A stretch of 64,000 bases of DNA from a virus (lineage: Duplodnaviria; Caudoviricetes): IMG/VR virus record IMGVR_UViG_3300042483_000388; one strand, 5' to 3'. The notes beneath the pieces are model-generated. The model had not been told where the DNA came from. It saw only the letters and a list, made by a program, of their open reading frames with translations, and ran no database searches. Positions 26,368 to 57,914 of the stretch are shown one piece after another; position 1 is the first letter of the stretch, and each line of letters starts with the position of its first letter. A program made the position numbers and the translations under genes.

Positions 26368-26790
26368 TCAATCCACCCAAATCACAAACTGGTCTTTACC
26401 AACCCTCATTGGGTTATTTTTACTTTCCCTCCATAATGTACCCAACCTCATAGACCAATAAGTACCCGATTCATGCGTTGGGTATATAGGAAAGGACAGT
26501 TCCCACTTTAACGATTTAACAACAAATGGGATTTCATTTTGTATATTACCGTAAATAATATTTTCCGCAATTTCTTTTTTAAGAAAATTTTCAATAAAGT
26601 ATTTTAATTCGGTGTTATCTATCTTTCTTTGGTTATATTCTTCACCTTGATCAGGCCTGGTTGATCTTGAATCCGCATGGGCATCTTTATGAAATTCAAA
26701 ATTAAAAATAACCTCCATTTTTGTTATAAGTTGAGCGATTCTCTTTTCTAATATTAAATGTTTTCGTACTATTTCTGTTATTAGATTCAT
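26368..26790 (-). CDS. Hypothetical protein with an N-terminal (I/L)xE peptide
   Basis: MNLITEIVRKHLILE; TATTTAA variant 4 nt upstream. Confidence 0.65.
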   Translation of the reverse strand: MNLITEIVRKHLILEKRIAQLITKMEVIFNFEFHKDAHADSRSTRPDQGEEYNQRKIDNTELKYFIENFLKKEIAENIIYGNIQNEIPFVVKSLKWELSFPIYPTHESGTYWSMRLGTLWRESKNNPMRVGKDQFVIWVD

Positions 26791-26834
26791 ATCATTAAAT
26801 ACTTCTAATACTATTTATATATAAAACAATTTAA

Positions 26835-28070
26835 ATGAATAAAAAATTTTTACCTTGGTTTTTATTGTTTTGTGCAATAGGACTATCAGGAACAGCAGCA
26901 TATTATAGTGTTGTTGGATTATCCATCATTTTCTCGACAGTTGCTATCCCCGTTATTATAATGGGATCATTTTTGGAGATATCAAAAATTGCCATAGCAA
27001 CATATCTTCACGATAAGTGGAAGGAAACATATAGATTATTGAAAATCTATTTAACAATTGCGTTGGTAATATTATCCGTCATAACATCAATCGGTATTTA
27101 CGGACTATTATCCAGCGGGTTCCAAAAGAACATTGCAGGACTTGAGATTAACAACAAGTTGGTTGATAACATTGGGGTTAAGAAAACAAGATTTGAGGAA
27201 ATCAAAGGTGACTACCAAAAAGAGAAAGAAGCGTTGGATAAAGATATAACTAACCTTAGAAATGCCCTTTCAAATAACACAACAACTCAAAGTATTGATA
27301 GAAGAACAGGTAAGGTTATCACTAGTGCAAATGGTGGTAATAGAAAGGCGTTTGAGTCTCAGTTGAATGTTGCCCAAAAAAATAGAGACATTATGTCCAA
27401 TAAAATAGAAGGGCTTAATGATAGTGTCACACGATTGGATATAGAAGTGTTGGACATTACATCCGAAGAAATTGAGTCTAGTGAGTTGGGAGCAATAAAA
27501 TATTTGAGTGAGGTTACGGGATGGGACATTAAAAAGACTGCAAACTTCTTTATACTAACTTTAGTGTTTGTTTTTGACCCATTAGCAATTGCCTTGGTAA
27601 TTTCCACAAACCAAGCATTTAAAAATATTAAAAGAAAAGAAGAAGAAGATGAGGTTAAACCTGAATATGAGGAATACCCATTCCAGGATGATATTGAGAT
27701 TCCCGAATGTTATTTAACACATGATACCGTACATGATACCGTACATGATACCGTACATGATACCATACAAGTAGAACCTGAAATTATTGAAAGAATTGTT
27801 GAGGTTCCTGTTGAAGTAATAAGAGAGGTTGAAAGAATTGTTGAAAAAATTGTTAATGTGCCATTTGATAGGGTTGTTGAAATTGAAAGGAGAATTGAAG
27901 TCCCGATAGATAGAATTGTTGAGGTGGATAAAATTATTGAAATACCATTTAAATATTATGTAAATGACAACGGGAATGTTTTTGACGATAAAGGAAATCA
28001 AGTTGATGATGAGACATTCAAAAATAAAATTGAGGAGATTGAAAAAAAAATATTAATGTATAAAAAATAA
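26835..28070 (+). CDS. Multi-pass membrane / coiled-coil protein with C-terminal VPV repeats
   Basis: Three N-terminal TM segments, coiled coil, FDPLAIALV TM, TVHD x3, VEVPVEVIREVERIVE repeats. Confidence 0.7.
   Translation: MNKKFLPWFLLFCAIGLSGTAAYYSVVGLSIIFSTVAIPVIIMGSFLEISKIAIATYLHDKWKETYRLLKIYLTIALVILSVITSIGIYGLLSSGFQKNIAGLEINNKLVDNIGVKKTRFEEIKGDYQKEKEALDKDITNLRNALSNNTTTQSIDRRTGKVITSANGGNRKAFESQLNVAQKNRDIMSNKIEGLNDSVTRLDIEVLDITSEEIESSELGAIKYLSEVTGWDIKKTANFFILTLVFVFDPLAIALVISTNQAFKNIKRKEEEDEVKPEYEEYPFQDDIEIPECYLTHDTVHDTVHDTVHDTIQVEPEIIERIVEVPVEVIREVERIVEKIVNVPFDRVVEIERRIEVPIDRIVEVDKIIEIPFKYYVNDNGNVFDDKGNQVDDETFKNKIEEIEKKILMYKK
27720..27764 (+). repeat. 12-bp tandem repeat (catgataccgta x3.7) encoding HDTV
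   Basis: Read directly from the sequence. Confidence 0.9.
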
Positions 28071-28073
28071 TAT

Positions 28074-28667
28074 ATGGAGGTTATTGAGAAAGTAATTGAA
28101 AATAATTTTAAAAATGGAAATAAAAAAACTCAGATAGTTCTTACCCATACTTCAAGAAATTTATTTGATTTTATGACGGCAATAAAACTTAGGTTTGGCG
28201 GTAAGCCAATCAAATTACCCCATTATTTAATAGGTAAAGATGGTAAAATATTACAAATATTAGATGACGATAAAAATGGTAAATACCTCAATACGGACAA
28301 GGTAAACAATAAAAGTATAGTCATTTGTTTAGAAAATCTAGGTTGGCTTGAAAAACAACCCCTAAAAAATTATCACATAAACTGGATTGGAACTATTTAT
28401 AGAGAAAAAGTTTTTGATCGTAAGTGGAGAAATTATTTTTTTTGGGATCCATACACTGAAATTCAGTTAGAAAAAACTGCTGAACTATGTAAGGAACTCT
28501 CAAAAAAACATGGGATTTTAACACAATTTATAGGGCACAACACAAAAATAAAAGGGGTTGAGTCTTATATGGGAATAATTACAAGATCAAACTTTGATGA
28601 GTTTGCTACGGATATAAGCCCGGCATTTGATTTTGAAAAATTTATAAAACTATTGGAAAATGAATAA
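28074..28667 (+). CDS. N-acetylmuramoyl-L-alanine amidase (Amidase_2-like), probable endolysin
   Basis: IVLTHT, PHYLIGKDGKILQ, SIVICLEN, GHN motifs. Confidence 0.7.
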   Translation: MEVIEKVIENNFKNGNKKTQIVLTHTSRNLFDFMTAIKLRFGGKPIKLPHYLIGKDGKILQILDDDKNGKYLNTDKVNNKSIVICLENLGWLEKQPLKNYHINWIGTIYREKVFDRKWRNYFFWDPYTEIQLEKTAELCKELSKKHGILTQFIGHNTKIKGVESYMGIITRSNFDEFATDISPAFDFEKFIKLLENE

Positions 28668-29600: not shown

Positions 29601-29601
29601 T

Positions 29602-31036: not shown

Positions 31037-31060
31037 AGATATTTATTAAAAAAAGAAAAG

Positions 31061-32284
31061 ATGAACAAACGTGAATACATACAATCAAGACTTGAAAAAA
31101 TCTTGAGAGAAAACATAAATGAGAAAGCTGACAATATCTTAAACAGATTAAACTATAATAAAGAGGCTCCTTTTAACCCAGAAGGTAGTTCATTTGATTA
31201 TGTTCAAGAAACAGAACATATGGAAGGTTCCAAAATGTGTGAATCATGTGGTGGAGAAATGAACGAAGGTGAGAATTGTGAAGAATGTGGTGCAGGGTAT
31301 GGAAAAGGAAATTTAAATGAGTTAGGTGATGATACGGAATTAGATGAAAGACTATATGGTAAACAACGTAGGATTGATAGAAATAAAAATGGAAGATTGG
31401 ATTCTGAAGACTTTAAAATGTTAAGGAATAAAAAAACAAGAAAAAATATTGAAGAATTTAATAATTACGAAAGTGAACAAGAGGAAGGAACTTTGTATGA
31501 AATACAAATTGAAAGACCAAATAAATTCAATCAAAATAAAATGGTTAAAGAATCTGCATTATTTACAGAGTCCGAAGTTATTGAGATGGTTGAAAGAATT
31601 ATTAATGAAGAAAATAAGAAATTTAACGCTGGACGACAACCTAAAGGGTATACTGAATATGAAAGAGTTCATAAAAAAGACAAAAAAGAAGAAGAGGATT
31701 ATTTTAAACTTTTAGCTAAAAAAATGAAAGATTATTTGAAAGACTCAACTAAAGGAGAATACAAAGAAAACCCGACTAATTTTCCTGAAAGTAATTATAC
31801 TCTAGATAAGAACGCTAAAGCTAAAAAATACACACCATCCGAAGCGGTTGACGATTATTTAGATGCGTTTTCTTATCCTGGCATGACCAACTTAGTTTAT
31901 GATGAAATTAAACCTAATGATGAGTGGATTGAGAACAATCTTAAAGGTTCATCTAAAACGGGAAATGCTCAAGTTGATAAAGATGGTAAGGCGTTAGGTA
32001 ATGTTGTACCAAGTAAGACTGGTGAGAAATTTTATAAAAACTACAAAGACAACCTTTATGGTCAAGAACAGCAAAATGCGTCATACAAAAGACAACCACA
32101 ACCTGTTGATCAAGCTGGTGAGGAAACAGAAAGAGGATCTTTAAAATCTAAAAGAGGTAAAAAAACGGCACAATCAGTTTTAAATAAAGTGGATGAAGGT
32201 TTTAATAATAAAGAATCTCAAAAATTAACTGAGGAGTTCGACAGAATGAAGTTGTTAATGGGTTATACCGATAAGACCCAATAA
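31061..32284 (+). CDS. Highly charged prohead core/scaffold-like protein
   Basis: CESCG..CEECG, EF-hand-like DRNKNGRLDSEDF, many (L/I)xE sites, C-terminal LTEEFDRMKLLMGY; TATTTAT upstream. Confidence 0.5.
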   Translation: MNKREYIQSRLEKILRENINEKADNILNRLNYNKEAPFNPEGSSFDYVQETEHMEGSKMCESCGGEMNEGENCEECGAGYGKGNLNELGDDTELDERLYGKQRRIDRNKNGRLDSEDFKMLRNKKTRKNIEEFNNYESEQEEGTLYEIQIERPNKFNQNKMVKESALFTESEVIEMVERIINEENKKFNAGRQPKGYTEYERVHKKDKKEEEDYFKLLAKKMKDYLKDSTKGEYKENPTNFPESNYTLDKNAKAKKYTPSEAVDDYLDAFSYPGMTNLVYDEIKPNDEWIENNLKGSSKTGNAQVDKDGKALGNVVPSKTGEKFYKNYKDNLYGQEQQNASYKRQPQPVDQAGEETERGSLKSKRGKKTAQSVLNKVDEGFNNKESQKLTEEFDRMKLLMGYTDKTQ

Positions 32285-32331
32285 TTTACAAATCATAGGT
32301 CATAACCTATAATTTTTTCATAGTTATACCT

Positions 32332-35801: not shown

Positions 35802-36293
35802 TTAAATTATATAGATAATAATATCACCTTTAATTATTTTAGTAAAGTTATTAACTTCAAAATCTTCTCTGATAACCGTTTCACCTGATTTGGTAATTAT
35901 AATTGTTTTATCGTTTTGGTTACTTGGTAAATTCTTTGGGTGACCAATTGATGTATTAATAGTTAAAAATAAATCACTATTTTTAGATTGAGTAACCCAA
36001 ATATGGTAATCAACACCTATCATATAGTCTTTAATTAAAATAGAATGGTCTTTATCTTGTATTTTACTTGGAGAATTAAGTATGTCTATGGATACCTCAA
36101 CAATGATGTCTAGAATGTCAACAATTGACTCCTTTATATCCTCAATTGATTGTCTACCGTATAATGAATTACTTATTGCCATATTTGAATGGTCATTATA
36201 AAAAATGTCAACGTTTAGACCATCAACTTCATATCTATCCAATAGTTGTTTTCCCTCAAGGATGATATTTTTTATTGTATTAAGTAATTTCAT
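35802..36293 (-). CDS. Hypothetical protein with an N-terminal (I/L)xE peptide (MKLLNTIKNIILEG)
   Basis: TATTTAT 6 nt upstream of this ATG; the longer track start lies inside a terminator hairpin. Confidence 0.65.
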   Translation of the reverse strand: MKLLNTIKNIILEGKQLLDRYEVDGLNVDIFYNDHSNMAISNSLYGRQSIEDIKESIVDILDIIVEVSIDILNSPSKIQDKDHSILIKDYMIGVDYHIWVTQSKNSDLFLTINTSIGHPKNLPSNQNDKTIIITKSGETVIREDFEVNNFTKIIKGDIIIYII

Positions 36294-37496: not shown

Positions 37497-38870
37497 ATGT
37501 CAATTCGTTTTACAAACATATTAAAAAATTTAATTATGGAACAATCAAGGTTCCAAGTTTTATACGATAAATTCGTAAAGCCACCAAAAGGGGGTAAAGG
37601 AATTATTCCTTTTGAAACTTTATTCGCACTTATTGCTGCCGACCCAACCACAAAAATTCCCGATGGAATGGATATTGATAATGTAAAACCACAAGATATG
37701 GACCGAGTTAAAATCGGTAAATACGCTCAGTGGTTAATCAAAAACTTTATTACGCCTAAGTTACCGGCAGATCATCCTTTAATGATTAGTGATCCCCAAT
37801 CAAGCCAATACAAACAAGCATTGGCACAATTCCAAGCCCTTTTCATGGAAGATTTATATAAGGTTACAACAAATCTTCAAAAATATGAAAGATTTAAAAA
37901 TAGGTTAGCACAAGAATATAGAGATATAAATAAATTAAGTATTGAGACTTTACAAGACCAAGTCAAAGATTTTAGTTTAGAAAAAACTAAAGCAACTGCT
38001 GACGAGAAAAAAGAAGCTTCTGTAACATATGCTCACCCTGGAGCAGACATCGTTTATAGAGGTCAAGATTGGACGGTTGCTAAAATCTCAAACACAGGTC
38101 CATTAGGTAAAGAAGCAGCATGTTTCTATGGTGGATCTCATAATGAGGGAAGACGAGGGGAAACTACTTGGTGCACATCATCACCTGGATATACTTGGTT
38201 TGAAAGATATATTGCCAAAGGACCTTTATATGTTGTAATTCCAAACACACCATCAACTTTCAAAACTTACGGAAAAGAAACTGGTGAGGTTTCAGGACTT
38301 CCGGCAAATCGTTATCAATTCCACTTCCCTGATAATCAATACATGGACGCTGATGATAGACAAATCAATTTAATTGACTTTTTAAACACAAATGAAGAAG
38401 GTTTAAAACAATTCTTTAAACCAGAATTTATGTCATCATTAACAGGTGAAAAGGGGACAAAAGTACAAGTTGAATATCCTAATGACTCAGCATCTAAGTT
38501 CATCGCTCTTTATGGGTTTGATGAATTCTTTGACTCTTTACCTCAAAATATACAAAGATTTACATTTAAGAATTCAGGGAAAGATAAAATATCTTTGAAT
38601 GTTCCTAACGACATTTCAAAATTTAAGGAATTAACCGCAATTAATTTTGTTGGTTGTGTTGCTTCTATCCCCGAATCAATATGTGATTTACCAAAGTTAC
38701 AATATTTGTCATTGGTTGATAACCCAAATCTACAACAAATACCGGAGTGTTTAGCAAATATGCCAAACTTGATGGTTGTTAATATTCCTGGTGCCTCCGG
38801 TAAAAACATTATCCCCCAAGCTTTATATGATCGGGATAATATTGATGATGATTTCCATATCTTCGAATAA
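37497..38870 (+). CDS. Protein with an N-terminal (I/L)xE peptide, central WCT motif domain and C-terminal leucine-rich repeats
   Basis: LIMEQ; TTWCTSS; IPESICDLPKLQYLSLVDNPNLQQIPECLANMPNL. Confidence 0.7.
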   Translation: MSIRFTNILKNLIMEQSRFQVLYDKFVKPPKGGKGIIPFETLFALIAADPTTKIPDGMDIDNVKPQDMDRVKIGKYAQWLIKNFITPKLPADHPLMISDPQSSQYKQALAQFQALFMEDLYKVTTNLQKYERFKNRLAQEYRDINKLSIETLQDQVKDFSLEKTKATADEKKEASVTYAHPGADIVYRGQDWTVAKISNTGPLGKEAACFYGGSHNEGRRGETTWCTSSPGYTWFERYIAKGPLYVVIPNTPSTFKTYGKETGEVSGLPANRYQFHFPDNQYMDADDRQINLIDFLNTNEEGLKQFFKPEFMSSLTGEKGTKVQVEYPNDSASKFIALYGFDEFFDSLPQNIQRFTFKNSGKDKISLNVPNDISKFKELTAINFVGCVASIPESICDLPKLQYLSLVDNPNLQQIPECLANMPNLMVVNIPGASGKNIIPQALYDRDNIDDDFHIFE

Positions 38871-38918: not shown

Positions 38919-38938
38919 ACGAACTATTTATTTATGGT

Positions 38939-39310
38939 ATGAAAATAATTATTACAGAGGATCAACTTAAAACTGCAGTATTTCAAAATACTGTTGATAT
39001 GGCACTTGATGATATTAAACAAAAATGTGATAAGATAAATGATGTTGGTGCTGATGCTGGAGAAATAATAAGTTTTGATGTTTGTGATCAATTGGAATCA
39101 ATTAAAAGAATTGAAATTGTAACCGTATATAAAACAAACAATATAATTGAAATGGGTCTTATAGTTTATTATGATAGTATTTTTCCATCAATGGATGCTG
39201 GTGATTATCTTTATGAGTTGGAGCATCATTTAAGAGAATATTTGGGTAAAGGAAATTTTAAATTGAAACTACTTAATGTTATAAACGAAAATCCAAGAAG
39301 TGATTGGTAA
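38939..39310 (+). CDS. MKIIITE-type protein
   Basis: MKIIITEDQL start, with TATTTAT 3 nt upstream. Confidence 0.7.
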   Translation: MKIIITEDQLKTAVFQNTVDMALDDIKQKCDKINDVGADAGEIISFDVCDQLESIKRIEIVTVYKTNNIIEMGLIVYYDSIFPSMDAGDYLYELEHHLREYLGKGNFKLKLLNVINENPRSDW

Positions 39311-39897
39311 TGAAAATAATAATAACAGAAAATCAATACAATAATTTAACTCAGGAAAAAATAAAAAATTTCCTATTTAAATTATGGGATAGACAACAGG
39401 AAAACGGTGAAGAACCTAATTTGGGTGAAATCATTTATGATGTTTTAGACATAAACTATGGTAGTGAGATGGACCATAAATTAGTTAGGCCACTTTGGTA
39501 TGAGTATAATGGTGGATCTGAAAAAGTTATAAATAAGATTAAAGACCAGATATTAGGTAAAGTGTTTAAAATTAAGGGAGAACAAAACCTAACAATGTTT
39601 GTAAGGATAGATGAAATTACGAATGATAATTATGAATATAATGAATATGTTGAGGTTAGTTTAGAGTTTAAAGGTAGTATTTTAGGTGGGAATGTTGATT
39701 TTATTGGAACGGATGACTATGGGAATGAAGGAGAAACTGAAGTTTTAGAGTTAGGTGATATTTATAACGAACTGGAGTATCAAGAACTTAGTGATTTTGA
39801 AGAATTTTTACGAGATGAAGCTCATGAATATTTTTGGTATAAGTTTGTAAAAAAATATGGAACTCCGTTTAATATTGAACTTGATAATAAGTTTTAA
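39310..39897 (+). CDS. MKIIITE-type acidic protein
   Basis: MKIIITENQY start; coupled to the previous ORF. Confidence 0.7.
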   Translation: MKIIITENQYNNLTQEKIKNFLFKLWDRQQENGEEPNLGEIIYDVLDINYGSEMDHKLVRPLWYEYNGGSEKVINKIKDQILGKVFKIKGEQNLTMFVRIDEITNDNYEYNEYVEVSLEFKGSILGGNVDFIGTDDYGNEGETEVLELGDIYNELEYQELSDFEEFLRDEAHEYFWYKFVKKYGTPFNIELDNKF

Positions 39898-45313: not shown

Positions 45314-46444
45314 TTAGATATAATCAACAAACATTTCGTTTATGTATTTTTGAGTTGTAGACCAATCTGGATAATCAGGAGTGCTAAAATCTATACAATC
45401 AAAATCATCATCGTAGATTAGTTGTTTCATCAAAGTAGTATAACTACCAAAATAATCTAAATATGAATCACTATAAGATCGACCTTTTTGTATTTCTAAA
45501 AATGCTGTAATGTTTCCAACAAAATCTCTAATTTTAATATAATTTAAGTATGTGGTTACTTTTTTACCATCCGATTTGGTAGTTTCTTTTGGTACTTCAT
45601 CAATTTTTCCTTCAAAGTATTCATTTAAACCATCATATACTAATTCATATATTTCATTTTCATATGCAGAATTATAAGCGTTCCAATAAATATTTTTTAA
45701 TTCTTGACCTAACTCACTTAAATCATTTTCACATAGTTCGTTTATTGCGTCGGAATCTTTAATTAATTCATTTAAGTCTTCAGCTTGAATTTTAAAATAA
45801 CCTTCAGTTCCCTGTTCTTCAGATAAACTTTCAAAAAAATCAGAGCTATAATCCTCTAAAGATAATTCAACATTACCAATTTCTTTAAAAATAGCATCTT
45901 TTAAATGAATGGTATTTTTTTCATTTAAATCGTCAATAACTTCAGATGGTTTTGTATCATTATCAAAATACCAATCATTACCTAAACCATCTTCACTAAA
46001 TACTCGTTTTGCAACATCTTCAGGAGAACTATCACGACGAGAGGAACCGCAGAAAAAATCAGCTAACTCATCCCTATCATTACCTAAATATAGGTAGAAC
46101 CCATCAGGTCTAATTTCAACATCACTTAAAAGGTTGCTTGTAATATATTTAACGGTATTTTCATAGTTATATTCTAAACCATGTAGTAAATAATTGTTTT
46201 GAAACTCTTCAGGAACAGAATTATAGTCTAAATTAGCCATAATACCATTCTCAACCAAATAATCAAACAATTCATTACTAAAATCATCAGAAGGTATAGA
46301 TCCTAAATCAAGGTCATCTAAAAGATTGTATTTTTTAATGAATTTAAAAAAATTTATTAATGTATTGAAGTATGGTTTTATTTCATTTTCATAATCACCA
46401 TCATTGAATAATTCTATTAAATTTTTTACCCTCTCTAAACTCAT
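45314..46444 (-). CDS. Acidic hypothetical protein (MSLERVKNLIE)
   Basis: Long ORF; TATTTAT 5 nt upstream. Confidence 0.7.
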   Translation of the reverse strand: MSLERVKNLIELFNDGDYENEIKPYFNTLINFFKFIKKYNLLDDLDLGSIPSDDFSNELFDYLVENGIMANLDYNSVPEEFQNNYLLHGLEYNYENTVKYITSNLLSDVEIRPDGFYLYLGNDRDELADFFCGSSRRDSSPEDVAKRVFSEDGLGNDWYFDNDTKPSEVIDDLNEKNTIHLKDAIFKEIGNVELSLEDYSSDFFESLSEEQGTEGYFKIQAEDLNELIKDSDAINELCENDLSELGQELKNIYWNAYNSAYENEIYELVYDGLNEYFEGKIDEVPKETTKSDGKKVTTYLNYIKIRDFVGNITAFLEIQKGRSYSDSYLDYFGSYTTLMKQLIYDDDFDCIDFSTPDYPDWSTTQKYINEMFVDYI

Positions 46445-46680: not shown

Positions 46681-46786
46681 AACGATTATTTTTAATAAGT
46701 TTATTTTTATATATAAATATATCCATAATAAGATTACTTTAAGTTTTTTAAATGTCAATTATTAGTTATTGTTATATTTATAATAT

Positions 46787-48001
46787 ATGTCACTAAAAAC
46801 ATTTTTTAAAAATTACCTAATAGAACAAGATGAGAATCTTGTTAGTGTTACTCCCGAACAATATGTTGAAACATTGGGAGATGTTGGTGGCATTGCAGAT
46901 AGAATTGCTAAACTAAAACAATATAGGGGTAAAGGTATTGTTATTACTGGACCACTAAGTGTTACTAACTACAAAAACATTGGGCCACTAACAGGTGTTG
47001 TTAGAGTAATGGGTAGATTAGATATTTCTCATACCAATATTTCAAATCTTAATGGAATTACAGTCGATGGTTATGTTAGTGATTATGGATCTTCTATGTG
47101 GAAGATTAAAATGCAACAAAAATTAAATGAAAAACTTTCAGACTTGGATGAAAAAAGAAGAGAAGATGAATGGAATGTTGAAAACCAAGATGATGAATCT
47201 GAAAGAACTGAAGCCGTATACAAATATTTAAATCAACATGGTGATGTGGATATGGTTGAAGACGACGAAGGAAATGAAGTTCCTGAAGATAAGTATTATA
47301 TCAATCCTAATGGAAGGGCAACCTATGGTTACGGAAAACAATATGAATGGTTAGGAGGTGGTAATGGGTTTAATCCCAATGAATATGATGTTTATACTGA
47401 AGATGAGGCAGATAGTGCCGCAAGACAAGCTGTTGAAAATTTAGTTGATGATTCAGGAATGGATGCGTTTAGTTCGTGGGCATTCAATGATGCTTTAAAT
47501 GATAGACAATGGTATGATTGGTTATATGATTACTACGATGATTATATTAGATCATCTCCTGAGGATTTTGATATACCTTTAGAACTATCAAATCAACAAA
47601 TGACACAAGTTCAACAACTACAATCAAACATAGATTCACTTAATAAAAGATTAGAAAGTGAAGATTTACCTGATGAAAAATATGAAGAAATTGAAATAAA
47701 AATTGAAGGGTTGGAAGAAATAATTCAAGAAATCAATGATGACCCACAAGGTGAATATGATGTAAGTTCAATTGAAAATGAAATTACAGGTAGAGTTGAT
47801 GAATACAAAGACGACATTTACGGGTTTATTGATCATCATGGTTATGATAAAGACTTTATCATGGATTTTATTGATTTAGATAAACTAACGGAAACGGTAG
47901 TAAGTTCTGACGGATATGGTAGTATGTTAAATTCTTACGATGGTGATTATGATACTTTTAATATAAATGGAACTGAGTATTACGTAATGAGGGTCTCTTA
48001 G
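46787..48001 (+). CDS. Acidic hypothetical protein with a short solenoid-like repeat (MSLKTFFKNYLIEQ)
   Basis: LIEQ motif; ITGPLSV...VMGRLDISHTNISNL; TATTTAT 5 nt upstream. Confidence 0.7.
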   Translation: MSLKTFFKNYLIEQDENLVSVTPEQYVETLGDVGGIADRIAKLKQYRGKGIVITGPLSVTNYKNIGPLTGVVRVMGRLDISHTNISNLNGITVDGYVSDYGSSMWKIKMQQKLNEKLSDLDEKRREDEWNVENQDDESERTEAVYKYLNQHGDVDMVEDDEGNEVPEDKYYINPNGRATYGYGKQYEWLGGGNGFNPNEYDVYTEDEADSAARQAVENLVDDSGMDAFSSWAFNDALNDRQWYDWLYDYYDDYIRSSPEDFDIPLELSNQQMTQVQQLQSNIDSLNKRLESEDLPDEKYEEIEIKIEGLEEIIQEINDDPQGEYDVSSIENEITGRVDEYKDDIYGFIDHHGYDKDFIMDFIDLDKLTETVVSSDGYGSMLNSYDGDYDTFNINGTEYYVMRVS

Positions 48002-48995: not shown

Positions 48996-49167
48996 TAAAA
49001 GAACAATTTCTAAAAAACATATCCTTAATAATGTGGATAACATAATGAATTATTTAGACGCTGATGCGGTATTCACCACCGACGAATTCTCACTCAACGT
49101 TTATAGAATGTTCAATCAAGGAAAATCAGAAGAAGAAATAGTAGAATACATAAATAATAATATATGA
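48985..49167 (+). CDS. Small hypothetical protein
   Basis: Coupled ORF (MGFNKRTI). Confidence 0.6.
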   Translation: MGFNKRTISKKHILNNVDNIMNYLDADAVFTTDEFSLNVYRMFNQGKSEEEIVEYINNNI

Positions 49168-50294
49168 AATTTTTTTTAGAATACGTGTGGCTTGACGGAT
49201 ATAAACCAGAGCCAAATCTTAGAAGTAAAGTTAAGATTGTTGAATACGAATCGATTAAGACCTTAAAAATTGAAGATTTTCCTGTATGGAATTTTGATGG
49301 GTCATCAACTAATCAAGCAGAGACAGGTAAGTCCGATTGTTTATTAAAACCGGTTAGACTTTATAAATCGGAATCTTTTCCATTGGAAAGAAGCGTTCTT
49401 TATGTGTTTTGTGAGGTATTAAATCCTGATGGAACACCTCACGAGTCAAATAAAAGATCAAGTATTAGTGAAGGTTTTGAAGATCTTTGGTTTGGTTTTG
49501 AACAAGAGTATTTTATTCGTGAAGAAGTTAATGGAAGAATTTTAGGTCACAATAGAAAGATTCTAAAAGGTCAAGGTGAATATTACTGTGGTGTGGGTCA
49601 TAATGTTGTTGGTCGTGAGTTTGTTGAACAACATACAAATATGTGTTTAGATTATGGTATTGGTATTACCGGAACAAACGCTGAGGTTGCTTTAGGTCAG
49701 TGGGAATACCAAGTTTTTTCTAAAGGTAAATTAAAAGGTGGTGACGATCTTTGGATGACTAGATACTTCCTTCATAAAATTGCCGAGAAATATGAATACC
49801 AAATAGAACTTCACCCAAAACCAGTACTACATAATGAATGGAATGGATCAGGTCTTCACACAAACTTTTCAACAGACATAATGAGATTAGATGGTAACGA
49901 AGAATACTTCATGGCATTATTCAACGCATTTGAATCAAGACACGAAGACCATATTAAGGCTTATGGGTCAAACAATCACTTACGATTGACCGGTGAATAT
50001 GAAACTCAAGCAATTGATAAATTTAGTTGGGGTGTATCTGATCGTGGAGCGTCAATTAGAGTTCCTCAGGACACAGCAAAAGAATGGAAAGGTTATATTG
50101 AAGATAGAAGACCAGGTTCAAATGCCGATCCTTACAAGATTATTCGTGAGATTGTTAAATCACTTGATGTCACACAACAAATATATGATACAAAACATAT
50201 GATGACTTCATTTGTTGATATGAATGGTCTTACCGGGAAATACGGCACAATGTCTAACGATGAGTTATTAAAAGAATATAGAGAAGAAGAATGA
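49164..50294 (+). CDS. glnII: Glutamine synthetase type II (GSII), auxiliary metabolic gene
   Basis: LEYVWLDG, WNFDGSST, WFGFEQEY, NAEVALGQWEYQ, WNGSGLHTNFS, RGASIRVP, EDRRPGSNADPY. Confidence 0.93.
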   Translation: MKFFLEYVWLDGYKPEPNLRSKVKIVEYESIKTLKIEDFPVWNFDGSSTNQAETGKSDCLLKPVRLYKSESFPLERSVLYVFCEVLNPDGTPHESNKRSSISEGFEDLWFGFEQEYFIREEVNGRILGHNRKILKGQGEYYCGVGHNVVGREFVEQHTNMCLDYGIGITGTNAEVALGQWEYQVFSKGKLKGGDDLWMTRYFLHKIAEKYEYQIELHPKPVLHNEWNGSGLHTNFSTDIMRLDGNEEYFMALFNAFESRHEDHIKAYGSNNHLRLTGEYETQAIDKFSWGVSDRGASIRVPQDTAKEWKGYIEDRRPGSNADPYKIIREIVKSLDVTQQIYDTKHMMTSFVDMNGLTGKYGTMSNDELLKEYREEE

Positions 50295-50512
50295 TTGAAC
50301 AAGTAAACCATCCACAACATTACGGAGGAGAAAATAATGAATATGAGACAATTAAGGTTATTGATGCTTGGGGATTAGGATTCTCATTGGGTAATACTGT
50401 AAAGTATATCTCAAGAGCTGGAAAGAAAGAAAAGGATAAAGAGTTACAAGACCTTAAGAAAGCTTTATTTTATTTAAAACATCATATTGATAATTTAGAA
50501 AAAAATGTCTAA
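50291..50512 (+). CDS. DUF3310-family protein
   Basis: VNHPQHY...ETIKVI...GNTVKYISRAGKK...DLKKALFYL. Confidence 0.85.
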   Translation: MIEQVNHPQHYGGENNEYETIKVIDAWGLGFSLGNTVKYISRAGKKEKDKELQDLKKALFYLKHHIDNLEKNV

Positions 50513-50720
50513 AATGAAATTAACTGAAGAACAAAAAAATCAGATCCTCAATCAATATGAGGGGTTAAAAAATGACGAACAAACACTTGGTGAAGTACAC
50601 GGAATAATTGTTGATTTTTGTGTTGATGAACACATTGTTGACTTATCAGATGATGAGGATGGTGACCTTTACGAAGAGTTTTCAAATGAAGCATGGGATT
50701 TTTTAGAGAGTATTAAATAA
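50505..50720 (+). CDS. Small acidic hypothetical protein
   Basis: Coupled ORF. Confidence 0.6.
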   Translation: MSKMKLTEEQKNQILNQYEGLKNDEQTLGEVHGIIVDFCVDEHIVDLSDDEDGDLYEEFSNEAWDFLESIK

Positions 50721-52261: not shown

Positions 52262-52263
52262 TT

Positions 52264-52698: not shown

Positions 52699-52756
52699 TT
52701 TCTTTGTTTGATCTTTAAAATAAAGTGGTGGAGATCTGACATTCAATGTTGGTCCT

Positions 52757-52789
52757 AAAAAAAAGGTGGGAGAAATCTCACCTTTTTTT
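52757..52789. terminator. Intrinsic terminator
   Basis: A-run, AAGGTG(G)GAG-aaat-CTCACCTT, T-run. Confidence 0.8.
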
Positions 52790-52823
52790 GTTTTGTATGT
52801 ATTTATATAATAAAAATTCTAAT

Positions 52824-53843
52824 ATGAAAAATAAATTATTTTTAGAGGAAGGAGAAATTTCAAGAATTCTTAATATGCACAAAAGGGCTATTAATGAAGA
52901 ACTTAATATTAATGGTAGAGAAGTTGGAAACAAAAGGGGTATATTAAATGAAATAACTGAAGATGAAAAGTTAACTGCAGATGGTGTCGGTACAAAAATT
53001 CAGGCATTATATAAATTTTGTAATGTTGGTATCCCCGGATTAGCTCATGTCAAATGTGCTACTGATATGAATGCTCAACTAAAGTTATTAAAAACCAAAG
53101 AACAATTTGATATTGCCGGCAAGAAAACAAGTTACTGGTATACGGGTGACTGGGCCAGAAGTTTAGGAGACTTTTTAAAACAACTAATGAAAAATGGGGT
53201 TGTTTCTCAATTATCCAAAACAGTTGGTACGCCGCAAGGTGAAATGGCTATTAAAATTGCACAAATTTATGCCTCAACATTTAAAGTTGCGGGAGGAACC
53301 TTAACTTTTAAAAAAGTTAATGACGCCAATGGTAATCCAACTTTAGATCCTGAGTCTTTTAAATTATCTTGGGGAACCCCGGCACCTATAGTAGGAGGAG
53401 GTGCAGCACCTGTAGTAACTACCAATAATGCCGCTTGTGATAAGGAGGGATTTAAACTGTCAACAAACAATAGTTGGTACTTCTCAACAAAAGAAACTTA
53501 TGATGCTGCCCCTGCGGATAAACGTAGGGCTTGGACATGTAGTTTGGATAAAAATGTAATATTGTATTGGGTGGATAGAGTTTGGCATGATACTGTTTAT
53601 ATTAAAACTAAAGGAAAAAGTGGTGGTAGTGGAACTGGTGGTGGAACTGGAGGAGGTGGTAGAACCGGAACCAGAAAAAAATACACCTTTGATGTTGCGG
53701 CAGTAAATAAATTAATAGATGAAAAATGTTCTAAGGATAAAAAACCAAATGTGGGTAGTGGAGGTATTGATCTTGATGTTACTGGTACACAAACACAAAC
53801 ACCAATACCTAATATGCCAAAAGATATACTTGGATCCTTATAA
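52824..53843 (+). CDS. Duplicated cassette copy 1, large ORF (MKNKLFLEEG...) with a divergent annexin-like segment
   Basis: Shares the N-terminal ~25 aa and C-terminal ~50 aa with the 54210 ORF; start placed after TATTTAT at 52800. Confidence 0.7.
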   Translation: MKNKLFLEEGEISRILNMHKRAINEELNINGREVGNKRGILNEITEDEKLTADGVGTKIQALYKFCNVGIPGLAHVKCATDMNAQLKLLKTKEQFDIAGKKTSYWYTGDWARSLGDFLKQLMKNGVVSQLSKTVGTPQGEMAIKIAQIYASTFKVAGGTLTFKKVNDANGNPTLDPESFKLSWGTPAPIVGGGAAPVVTTNNAACDKEGFKLSTNNSWYFSTKETYDAAPADKRRAWTCSLDKNVILYWVDRVWHDTVYIKTKGKSGGSGTGGGTGGGGRTGTRKKYTFDVAAVNKLIDEKCSKDKKPNVGSGGIDLDVTGTQTQTPIPNMPKDILGSL

Positions 53844-53863
53844 AACTAATAAAAAAAATAGAT

Positions 53864-54079
53864 ATGAGCAAAATTAAAATAACGCAAAGACAAATGATAA
53901 GGATCCAAAAGTTTCTTAATGAGAGCATTATTATGGAGCAAACCTCAGACGAGATTATCAATATTCAAAACAGGTTAAACTCATGTTTTAATGCTGGATT
54001 AAAAGCTGATGGTAAAATGGGACCAAAAACCGCATCGGCTATTGAAACATATACTGGTTATGATGTTTCTGTTTCATAA
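53864..54079 (+). CDS. Duplicated cassette copy 1, 71-aa protein with a peptidoglycan-binding (PG_binding_1-like) motif
   Basis: IQNRLN..GLKADGKMGPKTASAI. Confidence 0.65.
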   Translation: MSKIKITQRQMIRIQKFLNESIIMEQTSDEIINIQNRLNSCFNAGLKADGKMGPKTASAIETYTGYDVSVS

Positions 54080-54096
54080 GTTTAAAAAAAAATAAT

Positions 54097-54121
54097 AAGG
54101 GAGATCAATCTCCCTTTTTTT
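54097..54121 (+). terminator. Intrinsic terminator, copy 1
   Basis: AAGGGAGAT-ca-ATCTCCCTT followed by a T run; identical to 55538. Confidence 0.85.
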
Positions 54122-54209
54122 ATGCGGTTTTTTTTGTGATATGGAAAAATACTACTATATTATTATTCTTTTTTGGTTTATCATATATTTATATAATAAA
54201 AATTATAAT

Positions 54210-55286
54210 ATGAAAAATAAATTATTTTTAGAGGAAGGGGAAATTTCAAGAATTCTTAATATGCATAAAAGGGCAATCCGAGAAGAACTTAATGTTAATG
54301 GTGATGAAGTTGAGAACAATCAAGTTCAAATGGATGAGGAATTAAGTGAAGATGGTCAAGTACAAAAAACCTTGGCCGGAGCAGCTATTGGATCCGCAGC
54401 AGGTTCTTTTATTCCTGGTGTTGGTACTGTTGCCGGAGCAATAATTGGAGGATCCATAGGTTATTTTGGTAGTTTGATGAATAGTTATAGTTTAGAGGGG
54501 GCTAAAAAAATATTACAAGCTTGTTCGGCTAAAAAAGCTGAAATGGGAGAACCAACAATGAATTCAGCGACTTTAGCTAAGATTGCTGACGATATTAACT
54601 ACGGTGTTGAAGGTAGTGGAACATATGAAAAGACTATTGCCTCAGGTTTGAGACAGACCAAATATATGCCCAATCTATGTGCTATGGCGGCAGTTTATAA
54701 ACAGAGACAAGGTGAAAGTTTATTTGATGCGATTGATGGGGACATAGATTCTGATTATCAATGGAAAACGTATGTGTTTTTGCCTTTATTAGATGTTTAT
54801 AATAATAGTGTGGAATTGGGTAAAAAAATGTTAAAACAACAACCACAACAACAAAAAACTGGAGGAGGAGGAGCACCAACATCAGGTGAGGTGTACCAAA
54901 AGTGTCACACAGCAATAATTGACCCTATGGTTAAAAAATATGGATATACTTACGTAACTTTAGATGTGTTTAATCAAGCTCCGGCCGATAAGAAAACATA
55001 TAAATGGTGTCCTGCAGGGAAGAGTAACGTATACTTCACTAAAGGATGGAGTGGTGGTAGTACTGAAACTGCACCTACTGGTACTGAAACTCGTGTTTAT
55101 AGTGGCGGAGGTGGAGGAGGTGGAAAAACATACACCTTTGATGTTGCAGCAGTAAATAAATTAATAGATGAAAAATGTTCTAAGGATGGAAAACCTGGAG
55201 GAACAGGTGTTAATCTTGATGCTACTGGCACACCAACACCAACACCAATACCTAATATGCCAAAAGACGTATTTGACATCACATAA
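54210..55286 (+). CDS. Duplicated cassette copy 2, large ORF with a glycine zipper and an annexin-like repeat
   Basis: GAAIGSAAGSFIPGVGTVAGAIIGG; GVEGSGTYEKTI...YKQRQGESLFDAIDGDI. Confidence 0.7.
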   Translation: MKNKLFLEEGEISRILNMHKRAIREELNVNGDEVENNQVQMDEELSEDGQVQKTLAGAAIGSAAGSFIPGVGTVAGAIIGGSIGYFGSLMNSYSLEGAKKILQACSAKKAEMGEPTMNSATLAKIADDINYGVEGSGTYEKTIASGLRQTKYMPNLCAMAAVYKQRQGESLFDAIDGDIDSDYQWKTYVFLPLLDVYNNSVELGKKMLKQQPQQQKTGGGGAPTSGEVYQKCHTAIIDPMVKKYGYTYVTLDVFNQAPADKKTYKWCPAGKSNVYFTKGWSGGSTETAPTGTETRVYSGGGGGGGKTYTFDVAAVNKLIDEKCSKDGKPGGTGVNLDATGTPTPTPIPNMPKDVFDIT

Positions 55287-55305
55287 AACTAATAAAAAAA
55301 TATAT

Positions 55306-55521
55306 ATGAGCAAAATTAAAATAACGCAAAGACAAATGATAAGGATCCAAAAGTTCCTTAATGAAAGTATTATTATGGAACAAACCTCAGATGAGATTAC
55401 CAATATCCAAAACAGGTTAAATACTTGTTTTAATGCTGGATTAAAAGCTGATGGTAAAATGGGACCAAAAACCGCATCGGCTATTGAAACATATACTGGT
55501 TATGATGTTTCTGTTTCATAA
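55306..55521 (+). CDS. Duplicated cassette copy 2, 71-aa PG-binding-like protein
   Basis: 69/71 aa identical to 53864..54079. Confidence 0.7.
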   Translation: MSKIKITQRQMIRIQKFLNESIIMEQTSDEITNIQNRLNTCFNAGLKADGKMGPKTASAIETYTGYDVSVS

Positions 55522-55537
55522 GTTTAAAAAAAATAAT

Positions 55538-55562
55538 AAGGGAGATCAATCTCCCTTTTTTT
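55538..55562 (+). terminator. Intrinsic terminator, copy 2
   Basis: Identical to 54097-54121. Confidence 0.85.
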
Positions 55563-55590
55563 ATGCGGTTTTTTTTCTTATATTTGTGAT

Positions 55591-55980: not shown

Positions 55981-55983
55981 GAA

Positions 55984-56637
55984 ATGAAATTTGATAAAAT
56001 ATTAACTAGTGGTAAGGTATGGATTACTTCAGATACGCACTATTCGCACAAAAACATTTGTAGAGGAGTTACGGTTTGGAGAACCATAGATGGGGATATT
56101 CCAATCGGTGCAACCAGAGATTTTCCTAATTTGGATGTAATGGATAGTGTTATTGTTGATAACATTAATGAGAAGGTAGGGCCTGATGATACTTTAATTC
56201 ACTTGGGTGACGTGGCTTTTGGTGGTGTTGAAAAGATAGGACAATTTTTGGATCGTTTAGTTTGTAAAAACGTTCACCTTGTTTTGGGTAATCACGATCA
56301 GAACATAAAAAAAAATAGAGAGAACAACAACGATAAATTTTTATCTATTCAAAACTACTTGGAGGTTAATATTGGTGGTGTTGATTTTGTGTTATCACAT
56401 TATCCTTTATCAAGTTGGAACCAACTAAATAAAGGTTCAATTCACCTTCATGGACACGTACATCTACCAAGAAGTAAAAGATTTGGTAAAGGTAAAAAAT
56501 TAGATGTTGGTATGGATGGTAATAATCTTTATCCGTATAGTATAAGTGAGATTGTTCATATGATGGATAAACGATGTGTTGCGTCCGAGATGAATGGAGA
56601 TCACCACTTAGATGTTATTATTGATCTTGTGGGTTAA
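55984..56637 (+). CDS. Calcineurin-like metallophosphoesterase
   Basis: TSDTHYSH, HLGDV, LGNHD, SHYP, LHGHVH. Confidence 0.85.
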   Translation: MKFDKILTSGKVWITSDTHYSHKNICRGVTVWRTIDGDIPIGATRDFPNLDVMDSVIVDNINEKVGPDDTLIHLGDVAFGGVEKIGQFLDRLVCKNVHLVLGNHDQNIKKNRENNNDKFLSIQNYLEVNIGGVDFVLSHYPLSSWNQLNKGSIHLHGHVHLPRSKRFGKGKKLDVGMDGNNLYPYSISEIVHMMDKRCVASEMNGDHHLDVIIDLVG

Positions 56638-56663
56638 ATCGTAATTACAATATATTTATTGGT

Positions 56664-57914
56664 ATGAGAAATATTGTTATAACTGAAAATCAATTAAGGA
56701 TAATTACGGAAGCTTTAGGGGTTCCTGATAACATTTTGGATGCTGCCGATATGTTATATGACATTGTTGAAAGAGACATCAAATCAATAAGAGACATTCA
56801 AGATGTGTATAACTTTGATGGTGAAATAGAATTTGAATTAGGTGATAAGAAAAAAATCAAAATTGATTCATATACTCTTACAGTAAAAATTGAGGAGATT
56901 GATGATGAAGAAGGGGTCTTAGATATTATCTCAATGGGAATGGAAGGTGCTTTTGGATTTAATAGGGATGTTTATATGAAAGAAAACGAACCCTCAACAA
57001 TTTTGGGATTAACAATAACATTTGCTGTTGGTGAAAATTGGAAACCTGAAGGACTTATTCAAAAAATGGAAGAAGAAAGAGACGAACATGTCGCATCTTT
57101 AGCTCATGAAATAAAACACAAATACGATAAACAATCAAAACAATTTGGTTTAATTGGTCAAGACGCCGAATATCAAGCAACACAAAGAAGAGGTAGTTTT
57201 GGAATACCGGTAATTGATAGAGTTTTTTTTAGATACTTATATTATATTTCCGGTATTGAAAATCTTGTAAGACCAACTGAAGTGGCTTACAAGTTAAAAA
57301 GAAAAAATATTACAAAGTCACAATTCAAAGAATTTTTAGAAAATAATGTAGTTTATAAAGAACTCGTTGAAATTAAAAACTTCACATTTGAAGACTTCAT
57401 CAATCAATTAAAAGAAAGTGAAGATAGGTTAGACGTTATTATTGACCACATTGGTGAAGACCCATCCAACATGACAATAGATGAAAAAATTAATAGAGTA
57501 TTAGAAGTTGCTTATATTGATTTAGTTAATAATAGAATGCAAATGTTTATGACAATGACGGAACATGGAATGGATGATGTTATAAAATTTGGAACTCAAC
57601 TTGGTATTTTACCTCCAGGGTTAGAAGGAAATTTGGAGGGAATTCAAAAGACAGATGCGATTAGACAAAAGTTTTTGAAATATGTTATGAAATACGAAAA
57701 AAACCCAACCAAATTTTTTGAAGATGAAATTGAAAACTTTCAATATGTCGCAAATAAAATGATAAAGAAAATATCAAAACTCTATGCTATGGCAAAAGAT
57801 GATGAACAAGTTAGTGAATCAATTATCAATTGGGAACTTCATCAACAAATTATGGAGAAAAAATACGGTAAAAGAAAAATAGAAACAAAATACAAAAATT
57901 GGAATCTTAAATAA
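56664..57914 (+). CDS. MRNIVITE-type protein with an HExxH zincin-like motif
   Basis: ITENQLRIITEA start; SLAHEIKH; E in RPTEV; TATTTAT 4 nt upstream. Confidence 0.6.
   Translation: MRNIVITENQLRIITEALGVPDNILDAADMLYDIVERDIKSIRDIQDVYNFDGEIEFELGDKKKIKIDSYTLTVKIEEIDDEEGVLDIISMGMEGAFGFNRDVYMKENEPSTILGLTITFAVGENWKPEGLIQKMEEERDEHVASLAHEIKHKYDKQSKQFGLIGQDAEYQATQRRGSFGIPVIDRVFFRYLYYISGIENLVRPTEVAYKLKRKNITKSQFKEFLENNVVYKELVEIKNFTFEDFINQLKESEDRLDVIIDHIGEDPSNMTIDEKINRVLEVAYIDLVNNRMQMFMTMTEHGMDDVIKFGTQLGILPPGLEGNLEGIQKTDAIRQKFLKYVMKYEKNPTKFFEDEIENFQYVANKMIKKISKLYAMAKDDEQVSESIINWELHQQIMEKKYGKRKIETKYKNWNLK

Follow-up and report, generated by a model that had tools for sequence, protein, structure and literature searches.

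Interchangeable N-terminal peptide tags on diverse, putatively late proteins of T4-like Bacteroidota phages

Short helical peptides of 10–25 residues, falling into at least five related classes, stand at the start of about 15–17% of all genes, or roughly one in six, in a phage genome fragment and its relatives. These tags are real, N-terminal, selected as peptides, and interchangeable. By analogy with the capsid-targeting sequence (CTS) of phage T4, they probably load late cargo proteins into the head and are then cut off. The fragment, here called the window, is a stretch of 64,000 nt from an uncultured member of the Caudoviricetes (IMG/VR record IMGVR_UViG_3300042483_000388). An earlier note had proposed that its region 26368–57914 encodes unrelated late proteins sharing an N-terminal peptide that ends in (I/L)xE, an observation that we could confirm in part and an interpretation that is partly supported. 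The phage is large and belongs to an uncultured T4-like lineage of Bacteroidota with complete relatives of about 270–300 kb, two of which (272 and 304 kb; G001, rated 100% complete, and G002, rated 93%) were used for comparison.

Tag classes, cargos, and exchange

Tag profiles were trained on G001 and G002 only, without the window, and scored on the window against the reversed window as a control, in which the best scores were 3.1–5.8 bits. The relatives' profiles match five window genes (named here by start position), each exactly at the start Met: 39310 with 22.0 bits, 38939 with 19.8 bits, 52824 with 17.8 bits, 54210 with 16.3 bits, and 56664 with 11.7 bits. Extended over the window and both complete relatives, the scan with N-terminal profiles that the earlier note had suggested returns start-Met matches above control, with tags of five classes on 123 ORFs. 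Each related genome has 49–68 tagged ORFs, corresponding to roughly 50–70 distinct cargo proteins. The classes read MKIIITExQ[LY], often followed by ..L[IL]xE (class T1); MKKvIRLTESDLtRIVkRVInE (class T2); MK[ED]LIRhILKEE (class T3); ..ILISEEEKxRILgMH..INE (class T4); and ..EIxRIKxLMGLLxE (class T5). In six-frame scans of the three sequences, all 30 above-control matches of the class T1 profile were N-terminal, as were 20 of 20 class T2 and 30 of 38 class T3 regular-expression matches.

All 13 start positions and peptides quoted in the earlier note occur in the sequence exactly. Of its description of these N-termini as basic and amphipathic, the second term holds, the mean helical hydrophobic moment being 0.68 for tagged versus 0.48 for untagged N-termini (p = 5e-20); the first applies only partly, with net charges between −3 and +5 over the first 20 residues. 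The specific tags lie far beyond chance, but the literal (I/L)xE motif proposed as their shared mark is too loose: 23% of internal 24-residue windows contain one, and a bare motif is therefore weak evidence. It is present in 53% of N-termini with a nearby TATTTAT versus 33% of those without (p = 5.5e-7, three sequences pooled), and in the window only the counts are 10/19 versus 19/67 (p = 0.059). Within the tags, however, its placement is specific: [IL]xE lies between residues 4 and 34 in 120 of 123, at positions fixed within each class (T1, E7; T2, E9 and E22; T3, E11/13), and many tags have two such sites. In class T2, the P3 Ile and the Glu are invariant in 18 of 18 aligned tags, whereas P2 varies. 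The observed/expected ratio of the motif is 2.35 in tag regions versus 1.24 in untagged N-termini.

Behind the 123 tags, blastp distinguishes 97 cargo clusters, mostly singletons, with cargo sizes from 48 to more than 1000 aa. In IMG/VR, at least 105 ORFs start with MKIIITExQ[LF], and these fall into at least 38 cargo clusters. For 66 of 70 cargos no Pfam match was found; the domains recognized include PG_binding_1 in the window and Phage_lysozyme and OmpA in relatives, which suit delivered proteins. Orthologous cargos occur with different tags, and their homology begins at, or no more than three residues from, the h-x-E, as in the pairs LVE/APIDY and IKE/APIDY, VINE/NQ and LIE/NQ, and ILRE/DISTSLPI and LLKE/QTISLPI (a slash marks where the peptide ends). 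A swap is also seen in the 52824 family, some orthologues of which have a class T1-like start, MGKIILTERQY..., and a 1018-aa protein contains a further copy of one cargo module, preceded there by FLNE/. Tagged cassettes at 52.8–55.5 kb are missing from relatives with 92–96% identical flanks, and tagged genes cluster in tandem, ten of them within 14 kb of G001.

Conserved tag residues are encoded by mixed synonymous codons (Arg by AGA, CGT, CGA, and AGG; Leu by TTA, CTA, and TTG; Ser by TCA and AGT; Ile by ATA, ATT, and ATC), substitutions are conservative (I/V/L, T/S), and the upstream DNA of several tagged genes is quite different, which points to selection on the tag peptide and not on the DNA. 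Of 119 tagged genes, 111 lie behind a TATTTAT or in its operon chain; among untagged genes the figure is 320 of 679 (odds ratio 15.6, p = 9e-24). The same motif is found 5' of protease, portal, scaffold-like, and terminase genes. As read from this promoter motif alone, the tagged genes would be expressed late, together with the head genes. In the window, TATTTAT stands 3–17 nt before the ATG of nine genes (36293, 37497, 38939, 40488, 46444, 46787, 52824, 54210, and 56664), with 39310, 53864, and 55306 directly downstream of genes so preceded, in agreement with the context given in the earlier note. Its idea that diverse cargo carries a modular tag is likewise well supported by the N-terminal position, the selection on the peptide, the number of cargo clusters, the swaps at h-x-E, and the late-type promoter.

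Tagged genes of the window

The class T1 genes form an operon. The first (38939–39310, + strand, 123 aa, tag MKIIITEDQL) has TATTTAT 3/7 nt upstream and retains its tag in the G002 orthologue; the second (39310–39897, + strand, 195 aa, tag MKIIITENQY) has an orthologue with only 35% identity that nevertheless retains MKIIITEKQY. Gene 56664 (56664–57914, + strand, 416 aa) carries a two-part tag, MRNIVITENQLRIITE/ALGVP, and its product is 69% and 41% identical to those of the two relatives. The N-termini recovered from 79 IMG/VR loci keep the tag even where overall identity is as low as 41%, and in the AF2 model residues 1–18 have a pLDDT below 50, with helix 8–17 unpacked from the body. The product had been called zincin-like; an invariant HExxH (HEIKH at residue 148) is the sole basis for this label, and a fold match was not found.

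Genes 52824 (52824–53843, + strand, 339 aa, class T4 tag MKNKLFLEEGEISRILNMHKRAINE/E) and 54210 (54210–55286, + strand, 358 aa, same class T4 tag) are paralogues with 42% identity over 153 aa, the latter having a glycine-zipper segment with a weak Pfam Gly-zipper match. Between and behind them lie 53864 (53864–54079, + strand, 71 aa), in which the tag MSKIKITQRQMIRIQKFLNESIIME/Q is followed by a peptidoglycan-binding domain (Pfam PG_binding_1, E = 8.9e-5, as the earlier label had it), and its 95% identical second copy 55306 (55306–55521, + strand, 71 aa). Orthologues of these two read MSKIKLTEDQYKRLKNNLIESSILNEQ, and MSKIKLTEDQY... in G002 scores 15.9 bits, so that the tag, supported via the orthologues, is plausible. 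Apart from these two related pairs, the cited proteins are unrelated by blastp past the first 28 residues, as had been claimed. Gene 41010 (41010–42254, + strand, 414 aa), absent from the earlier list, has the tag MRNIKRKLFTEGLTKKEFLRLVE/APIDY, while its G001 orthologue has a different, class T3 tag, MVDKDLERLIRKIIKE/APIDY, with cargo homology beginning directly after the Glu.

In four further genes, no tag profile reached control level; each has its own N-terminus with an h-h-E conserved in orthologues, which makes a tag plausible. Gene 46787 (46787–48001, + strand, 404 aa) has a short conserved N-terminus, ..F.KN[YF]hhE/QDEN, which is kept in 18 distinct N-termini of orthologues with identities as low as 52%. 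Gene 37497 (37497–38870, + strand, 457 aa, N-terminus MSIRFTNILKNLIME/Q) retains h-h-E in the G002 orthologue (LIVE/S). A G001 late gene (MKLVKILSSVIVE/N) resembles a further orthologue, for which tblastn gave no match. The LRR label of 37497 is upheld by a weak Pfam match and by Atlas LRR clusters at 0.98. Gene 36293 (35802–36293, − strand, 163 aa, N-terminus MKLLNTIKNIILE/G) retains SIIVE/S in a G001 orthologue of 37% identity. Gene 40488 (40488–41006, + strand) encodes a 172-aa acidic repeat protein with a class T5-like N-terminus, MKKSINEELNSIKFLFKYKAGKVLSE/QEQ, that is conserved in G002 and scores 4.3 bits with the T5 profile, under the 5.8-bit control.

Tag-like helices are not restricted to N-termini. 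The 407-aa product of 31061 (31061–32284, + strand) has an N-terminal helix, ..RLEKILRENINE, an internal class T2-like helix (nt 31544–31621; 13.3 bits versus a 3.1-bit control), and a C-terminal EEFDRMKLLMGY..KTQ; its orthologues in G002 and G001 retain all three. Gene 50505 (50505–50720, + strand, 71 aa, MSKMKLTEEQKNQILNQYEGLKNDE/Q), scoring 15.1 bits with class T4 and 8.6 bits with class T1, is uncertain as a tagged gene and has neither a late-type promoter nor a late operon. Six of the window examples in the earlier list are tied by profile to no tag class. Beside its strong cases, that list includes two at chance level: 26790 (26368–26790, − strand, 140 aa, MNLITEIVRKHLILEK), which is unsupported, with no orthologue in the loci compared and a best profile score of 2.7 bits, and 46444 (45314–46444, − strand, 376 aa, MSLERVKNLIEL), which we reject as tagged because most orthologues have another residue in place of the LIE Glu (LIES, LVDS, LVQL, LRDS). 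For an annexin-like label, also given there, no support was found.

Head machinery and possible roles of the tags

Head genes are absent from the 64,000-nt window; those for the protease and the capsid protein come from its relatives. Both G001 and G002 encode a Peptidase_S77, the gp21-type prohead protease (79.6 and 81.1 bits), which is also phrog_207 head maturation protease, along with a portal, a large terminase, and a capsid protein of gp23 type. The N-terminal propeptide of the relatives' capsid protein holds five [IL]xE sites in 60 residues, versus three to four in the mature part of about 570 residues, and its end, FLINE/ASSDG, directly precedes the segment alignable with gp23* of phage T4. 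In phage T4, gp21 cleaves after L/I-x-E, and CTS propeptides of 10 residues are enough for packaging (PMC9026906). The analogy to phage T4 drawn in the earlier note therefore has a real basis in the relatives' protease, portal, and capsid propeptide ending in I-N-E/A.

On this analogy, tagged proteins would be made late, the tag helix would bind to the core of the assembling prohead and so bring the cargo inside, the gp21-type protease would cut behind the Glu that closes the terminal [IL]-x-E, and the freed cargo would remain in the head and exit with the DNA at infection. We infer core binding, cleavage, packaging, and ejection alike from the sequences. The cargo bodies are not depleted in [IL]xE (observed/expected 1.12 versus 1.14–1.19 in other proteins), so protease exposure has left no detectable trace there. 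In addition, classes T1 and T2 keep residues past the first [IL]xE (Q9, L/Y10), for which a bare cut site does not account. Since the number of cargos is far above the three to four of phage T4 (IPI–III, Alt), some tags may serve another purpose.

It is possible, though unlikely, that the tags are docking or pro-sequences for a late process other than head loading, such as binding to a chaperone or hub, assembly of the tail, baseplate, or membrane-associated structures, or timed proteolytic activation without packaging. The very large share of tagged genes, the existence of several distinct classes, the conserved residues past the first cut-type site, and the three tag-like helices of 31061 would fit such a role. 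However, every class ends in the motif used by the clade's own capsid propeptide, the classes replace one another on the same cargo, and for short N-terminal late tags ending in [IL]xE in a phage that has a gp21-type protease, head loading is the sole known precedent (PMC9026906). That the tags reflect common descent only, being the first helix of one diverged paralogous family without an address function, is improbable: the tandem clusters and the prevalence of orphan cargos could be read in this way, but unrelated known domains (PG_binding_1, Phage_lysozyme, OmpA, and LRR), the wide range of cargo sizes, different tag classes on orthologous cargos with sharp junctions at h-x-E, and the module recurring after FLNE/ in the 1018-aa protein all speak against it.

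Conservation at the level of the mRNA, with the first codons kept for leaderless initiation or as part of the promoter, would imply that late transcripts begin only a few bases upstream of the ATG. Although many tagged genes do have TATTTAT 3–7 nt ahead of their ATG, we consider this reading highly improbable in light of the free synonymous variation in codons for conserved residues, the six-fold ones of Arg, Leu, and Ser among them, the changes that are conservative at the protein level, the operon-internal tagged genes with unrelated upstream DNA, the conservation over 22 codons in class T2, and the untagged structural late genes that share the promoter. A leader for a modifying enzyme, such as a radical-SAM/SPASM maturase, is scarcely credible, as Radical_SAM (PF04055) and SPASM (PF13186) were unmatched in G001–G004, while control genomes match. 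Head loading in the manner of the T4 CTS is thus the reading that we prefer.

Comparison with known systems

The internal-protein CTS of phage T4 was reportedly described by Mullaney and Black in 1996. It is found on IPI, IPII, and IPIII and as the propeptide of Alt, and is removed by gp21 (PMC9026906, PMC3012670). In both systems, a short N-terminal peptide ending in L/I-x-E stands on proteins that are late (here judged by promoter motif), poorly conserved, and apart from the peptide unrelated. In the present lineage, it is the relatives that encode a gp21-family protease and a capsid protein of gp23 type, with L/I-x-E at the end of its propeptide. Conservation of the T4 internal proteins across related phages is poor (PMC9026906), and the tagged cassettes are likewise highly variable between close relatives. 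Unlike phage T4, with three to four such proteins, each related genome here has its 49–68 tagged ORFs in at least five classes of 10–25 residues, many with two [IL]xE sites and known from sequence alone; similar helices are found at internal positions and at a C-terminus as well, and the hosts are Bacteroidota. To our knowledge, there is no evident similarity between the T4 CTS sequence and the tags.

In the giant phages phiKZ, 201phi2-1, and SPN3US, propeptides of inner-body and ejection proteins are cut by gp175/gp245 (PMC5694885, PMC10052503). As is proposed for the present lineage, these phages load tens of proteins into the head, and a gp21-related protease takes off their N-terminal propeptides behind a Glu; the extreme N-termini are conserved among paralogues, and the propeptides contain several cut sites. 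Their motif, however, is S/A/G-x-E (PMC9026906, PMC5694885), in contrast to Ile/Leu at P3 here. Their propeptides mostly exceed 100 residues and their cargo set is largely conserved, whereas the tags are short and shuffled among cargos; the P3 residue and the length of 10–25 residues set the tags apart from phiKZ-type propeptides. Encapsulin cargo-loading peptides are short and portable and direct diverse cargo into an HK97-fold shell, as proposed for the tags. In contrast to the proposed action of the tags, they are usually C-terminal, remain uncut, and bind the shell protein directly, without protease or DNA. The tag system would thus appear to be an expanded variant of the capsid-targeting sequence that phage T4 uses with three to four proteins.

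N-terminal tags, their classes and their cargo

The protein encoded by window ORF 56664 (ORFs are named here by start position) retrieved 79 related loci from IMG/VR, on contigs as long as 304 kb; the related genomes G001 (304 kb, CheckV 100% complete) and G002 (272 kb, CheckV 93%) were used for comparison. The 64 kb window itself is AT-rich (about 31% GC) and gave no megablast match to deposited phage genomes (INPHARED). Besides many orphan proteins, its genes include a primase, an exonuclease, SbcCD and a sigma factor. Pfam and PHROGs searches of the proteins cited in the earlier note returned almost nothing.

That note had proposed that N-termini ending in (I/L)xE on at least 14 unrelated putative late proteins form a modular tag for head loading. 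Each peptide that it quoted was found in place, but the motif in the first 10–25 residues is not specific, as 23% of internal 24-residue windows carry it as well, and the bare definition, taken alone, is a weak finding. Across the window, G001 and G002, [IL]xE occurs in 53% of N-termini with TATTTAT nearby versus 33% of those without (p = 5.5e-7); in the window alone, the counts are 10 of 19 and 19 of 67, respectively (p = 0.059).

Recurrent tags, i.e., short N-terminal helices ending in (I/L)xE, fall into five classes. For T1 (MKIIITExQ[LY]), the regular expression [ILVM]3-[TS]-[EKNQ]-x-Q matched 24 times when run on every six-frame ORF of these three sequences, with 20 of the matches immediately behind a start Met-Lys. 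A T1 profile derived from the matches scored approximately 33 ORFs above 10 bits, all at the start Met, compared with a top reversed-sequence score of 9.8. Four more classes emerged on listing N-termini downstream of TATTTAT: T2 (MKKvIRLTESDLtRIVkRVInE; N-terminal in 20/20 regex matches), T3 (MK[ED]LIRhILKEE; 30/38), T4 (..ILISEEEKxRILgMH..) and T5 (..EIxRIKxLMGLLxE). T1 is similar to the N-terminal half of T2, and T3 to the C-terminal half, which the T3 profile indeed matches. Tagged N-termini are more amphipathic than other N-termini, and [IL]xE is present in 120 of 123 tags, at positions that are fixed per class. Among all 18 aligned T2 tags, P2 varies while neither the P3 Ile nor the Glu does.

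Conservation of these stretches at the mRNA level is contradicted by the codons used. At conserved tag residues these vary freely (Ile ATA/ATT/ATC; Thr ACA/ACT/ACC/ACG; Arg AGA/CGT/CGA/AGG; Leu TTA/CTA/TTG; Ser TCA/AGT), residue changes are conservative, and the upstream DNA is unrelated for several operon-internal tagged genes. Selection therefore acts on the peptide, as opposed to a promoter-leader cassette or some signal for translation. A radical-SAM leader function was rejected because such enzymes are absent from the related genomes. The shared N-termini might also reflect paralogy only, a reading contradicted by exchanges of tags and by cargos (the remainders of the tagged proteins) that contain known domains unrelated to one another. 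The 123 ORFs with an above-control tag (68 in G001, 49 in G002 and 6 in the window) carry cargos that form 97 blastp clusters, and a Pfam match was obtained for only 4 of the 70 larger cargos, namely DUF6576 (twice), Phage_lysozyme and OmpA. Orthologous or paralogous cargos bear different tags, with homology beginning at the Glu, as in ...LRLVE↓APIDY of window ORF 41010 versus ...KIIKE↓APIDY in G001 (↓, putative cut point), RVINE↓NQ versus EILIE↓NQ, and ILRE↓DISTSLPI versus LLKE↓QTISLPI. The cargo of one small tagged protein reappears within a 1018-aa protein with FLNE↓ ahead of it, and the family of 52824 has a T4 tag in some members and a T1-like tag in others. The number of cargo clusters and the swaps with their junction at Glu thus bear out a modular tag on diverse cargo. 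Scanning IMG/VR with a DNA pattern of MKIIITExQ[LF] yielded at least 105 tagged ORFs in at least 38 cargo clusters; among the matches listed, at least 61 show another h-x-E whose Glu is residue 15 or 16.

Tagged genes in the window

The window was scanned with profiles trained on G001 and G002 only, for which the best reversed-window scores were 3.1–5.8 bits. ORFs 39310, 38939 and 56664 scored 22.0, 19.8 and 11.7 bits as T1; 52824, 54210 and 50505 scored 17.8, 16.3 and 15.1 bits as T4, the last also 8.6 bits as T1; and a helix internal to the protein encoded at 31061-32284 scored 13.3 bits as T2. The candidates 36293, 26790, 37497, 46787, 46444 and 40488 failed to pass these profiles, and all of them except 46444 also stayed below control level with an iterated T3 profile on N-termini. 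Orthologue comparison showed a strongly conserved N-terminus, F.KN[YF]hhE↓QDEN, for 46787, retention of h-h-E by distant orthologues of 37497 and 36293, and conservation of the 40488 N-terminus in G002. For 26790, no orthologue was found among the loci compared, and 46444 was rejected as a tagged gene, its Glu being lost in most orthologues. The list in the earlier note therefore has a strong core along with some items at chance level; it had missed 41010, which is tagged on the basis of its swap relative to G001. Orthologues of 53864 and 55306, both of which have PG_binding_1, read MSKIKLTEDQYKRLKNNLIESSILNEQ. The gene at 40488-41006 encodes a very acidic 172-aa protein containing an exact repeat, DIDMDTRTPEERERDGL, twice.

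The AF2 model of the 56664 protein (pLDDT 71.5) is of low confidence at residues 1–18, and its tag helix does not pack against the body; Foldseek searches against the PDB, VIA-align wide and AFDB clusters gave generic helical matches only. The protein may be zincin-like. At 52746-55521, a two-gene cassette encoding a tagged 340-360-aa protein and a tagged 71-aa PG-binding protein is duplicated in tandem. The closest relative has the tagged cassettes of 52.8-55.5 kb, but relatives with flanks that are 92–96% identical lack them; the region is a hyperplastic island.

In the protein encoded at 31061-32284, the N-terminus has a tag-like helix, the middle holds a conserved T2-like one (nt 31544-31621), and the extreme C-terminal end is a conserved T5-like ...EEFDRMKLLMGYTDKTQ. 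In its orthologues, the stretches separating the three helices are highly variable. This protein is possibly a polyprotein or else a component of the core.

A 913-aa protein (58074-60815) combines a signal peptide, Ig_7 and a T9SS C-terminal sorting domain (Por_Secre_tail), which indicates a Bacteroidota host. GC content around this gene rises to 40% compared with about 31% for the genome, and the gene looks as if it was acquired from such a host. The phage also encodes a glutamine-synthetase-like protein (49164-50294; Pfam Gln-synt_N and Gln-synt_C).

Head machinery and the late motif

In T4, the prohead protease gp21 cleaves after L/I-x-E, and a 10-residue capsid targeting sequence (CTS) is enough for head loading (PMC9026906). 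A Peptidase_S77 prohead protease (phrog_207) is present in both G001 and G002 (in the latter at L091:4046-4774, minus strand), adjoined by genes for a portal, a large terminase, a very acidic scaffold-like protein and a gp23-type capsid protein. Five [IL]xE sites lie in the first 60 residues of the capsid protein, compared with 3–4 in the remaining ~570, and this N-terminal stretch ends in FLINE↓ASSDG, 12 residues ahead of a block that aligns to residues 28–61 of mature T4 gp23*. Between the protease and capsid genes of G002 (L091:2170-3693), the scaffold-like protein has 507 residues, an extremely acidic, Met/Asp/Glu-rich centre and a T3-like N-terminal helix, ...EEIRQLVKESLRE / ...MSEEIRQLVKESLREQ. 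Cargo bodies, examined for a shortage of [IL]xE as a trace of protease exposure, showed none.

TATTTAT, directly or heading the operon, precedes 111 of 119 tagged genes versus 320 of 679 untagged genes (p = 9e-24), and it precedes the head genes as well. Its total of 58 is not above that in shuffles (52); its position relative to gene starts alone is non-random. In many genes it ends 3–7 nt before the ATG (56653-56664, 46775-46787, 38929-38939 and others), so that these late mRNAs would have little or no leader.

Wherever sequence-level comparison could be made, these features agree with the head loading proposed earlier, and that reading is partly supported; the protease was found in the relatives only. 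The helices may instead dock proteins to something besides the prohead core, or head loading may be limited to some classes; the very large count of tagged proteins and the conservation of residues past the first cut site leave room for this. Going beyond head loading as such, we think it rather improbable that the five classes, instead of being redundant forms of a single signal, make up an address code, in which each would bind a different core component, more than 50 cargos would be layered or ordered for ejection, the tags might copy scaffold helices such as the T3-like one, and the head would be a programmable, ordered delivery device with swappable payloads.

Comparison with known systems

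Judged by capsid protein, the nearest cultured relative is Flavobacterium phage immuto (41% identity), in which T1 and T2 tags are absent and T5- or T3-like N-termini are few, e.g., MKKQILSEQFKRMQFLAGIITES. A tblastn search of deposited phage genomes with a 25-residue T2 tag gave no match at E <= 1, and a literature search found no paper with the tag strings and none on such tags in metagenomic jumbo phages.

If the tags load the head, about one-sixth of the genes of this lineage would encode proteins delivered with the DNA, almost all without a known family. Hundreds of orphan genes would then be marked as first-minute effectors, for instance in anti-defence, in host take-over or with action on the cell wall, a simple sequence rule would spot such cargo in metagenomes, and new portable tags would be at hand to package foreign proteins in Bacteroidota phages. 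The three-protein system of T4 would be the small end of a far larger strategy.

The tags differ from phiKZ-type propeptides in motif and length. With the CTS of T4 internal proteins, which it probably resembles in function, the system, known here from sequence, agrees in every feature compared at that level. It differs from the T4 system in scale, with 49–68 tagged ORFs per related genome (~15–17% of genes), in its division into several classes of tag, many of which contain two cut sites, in having tag-like helices that are also internal and at a C-terminus, and in the phylum of its host.
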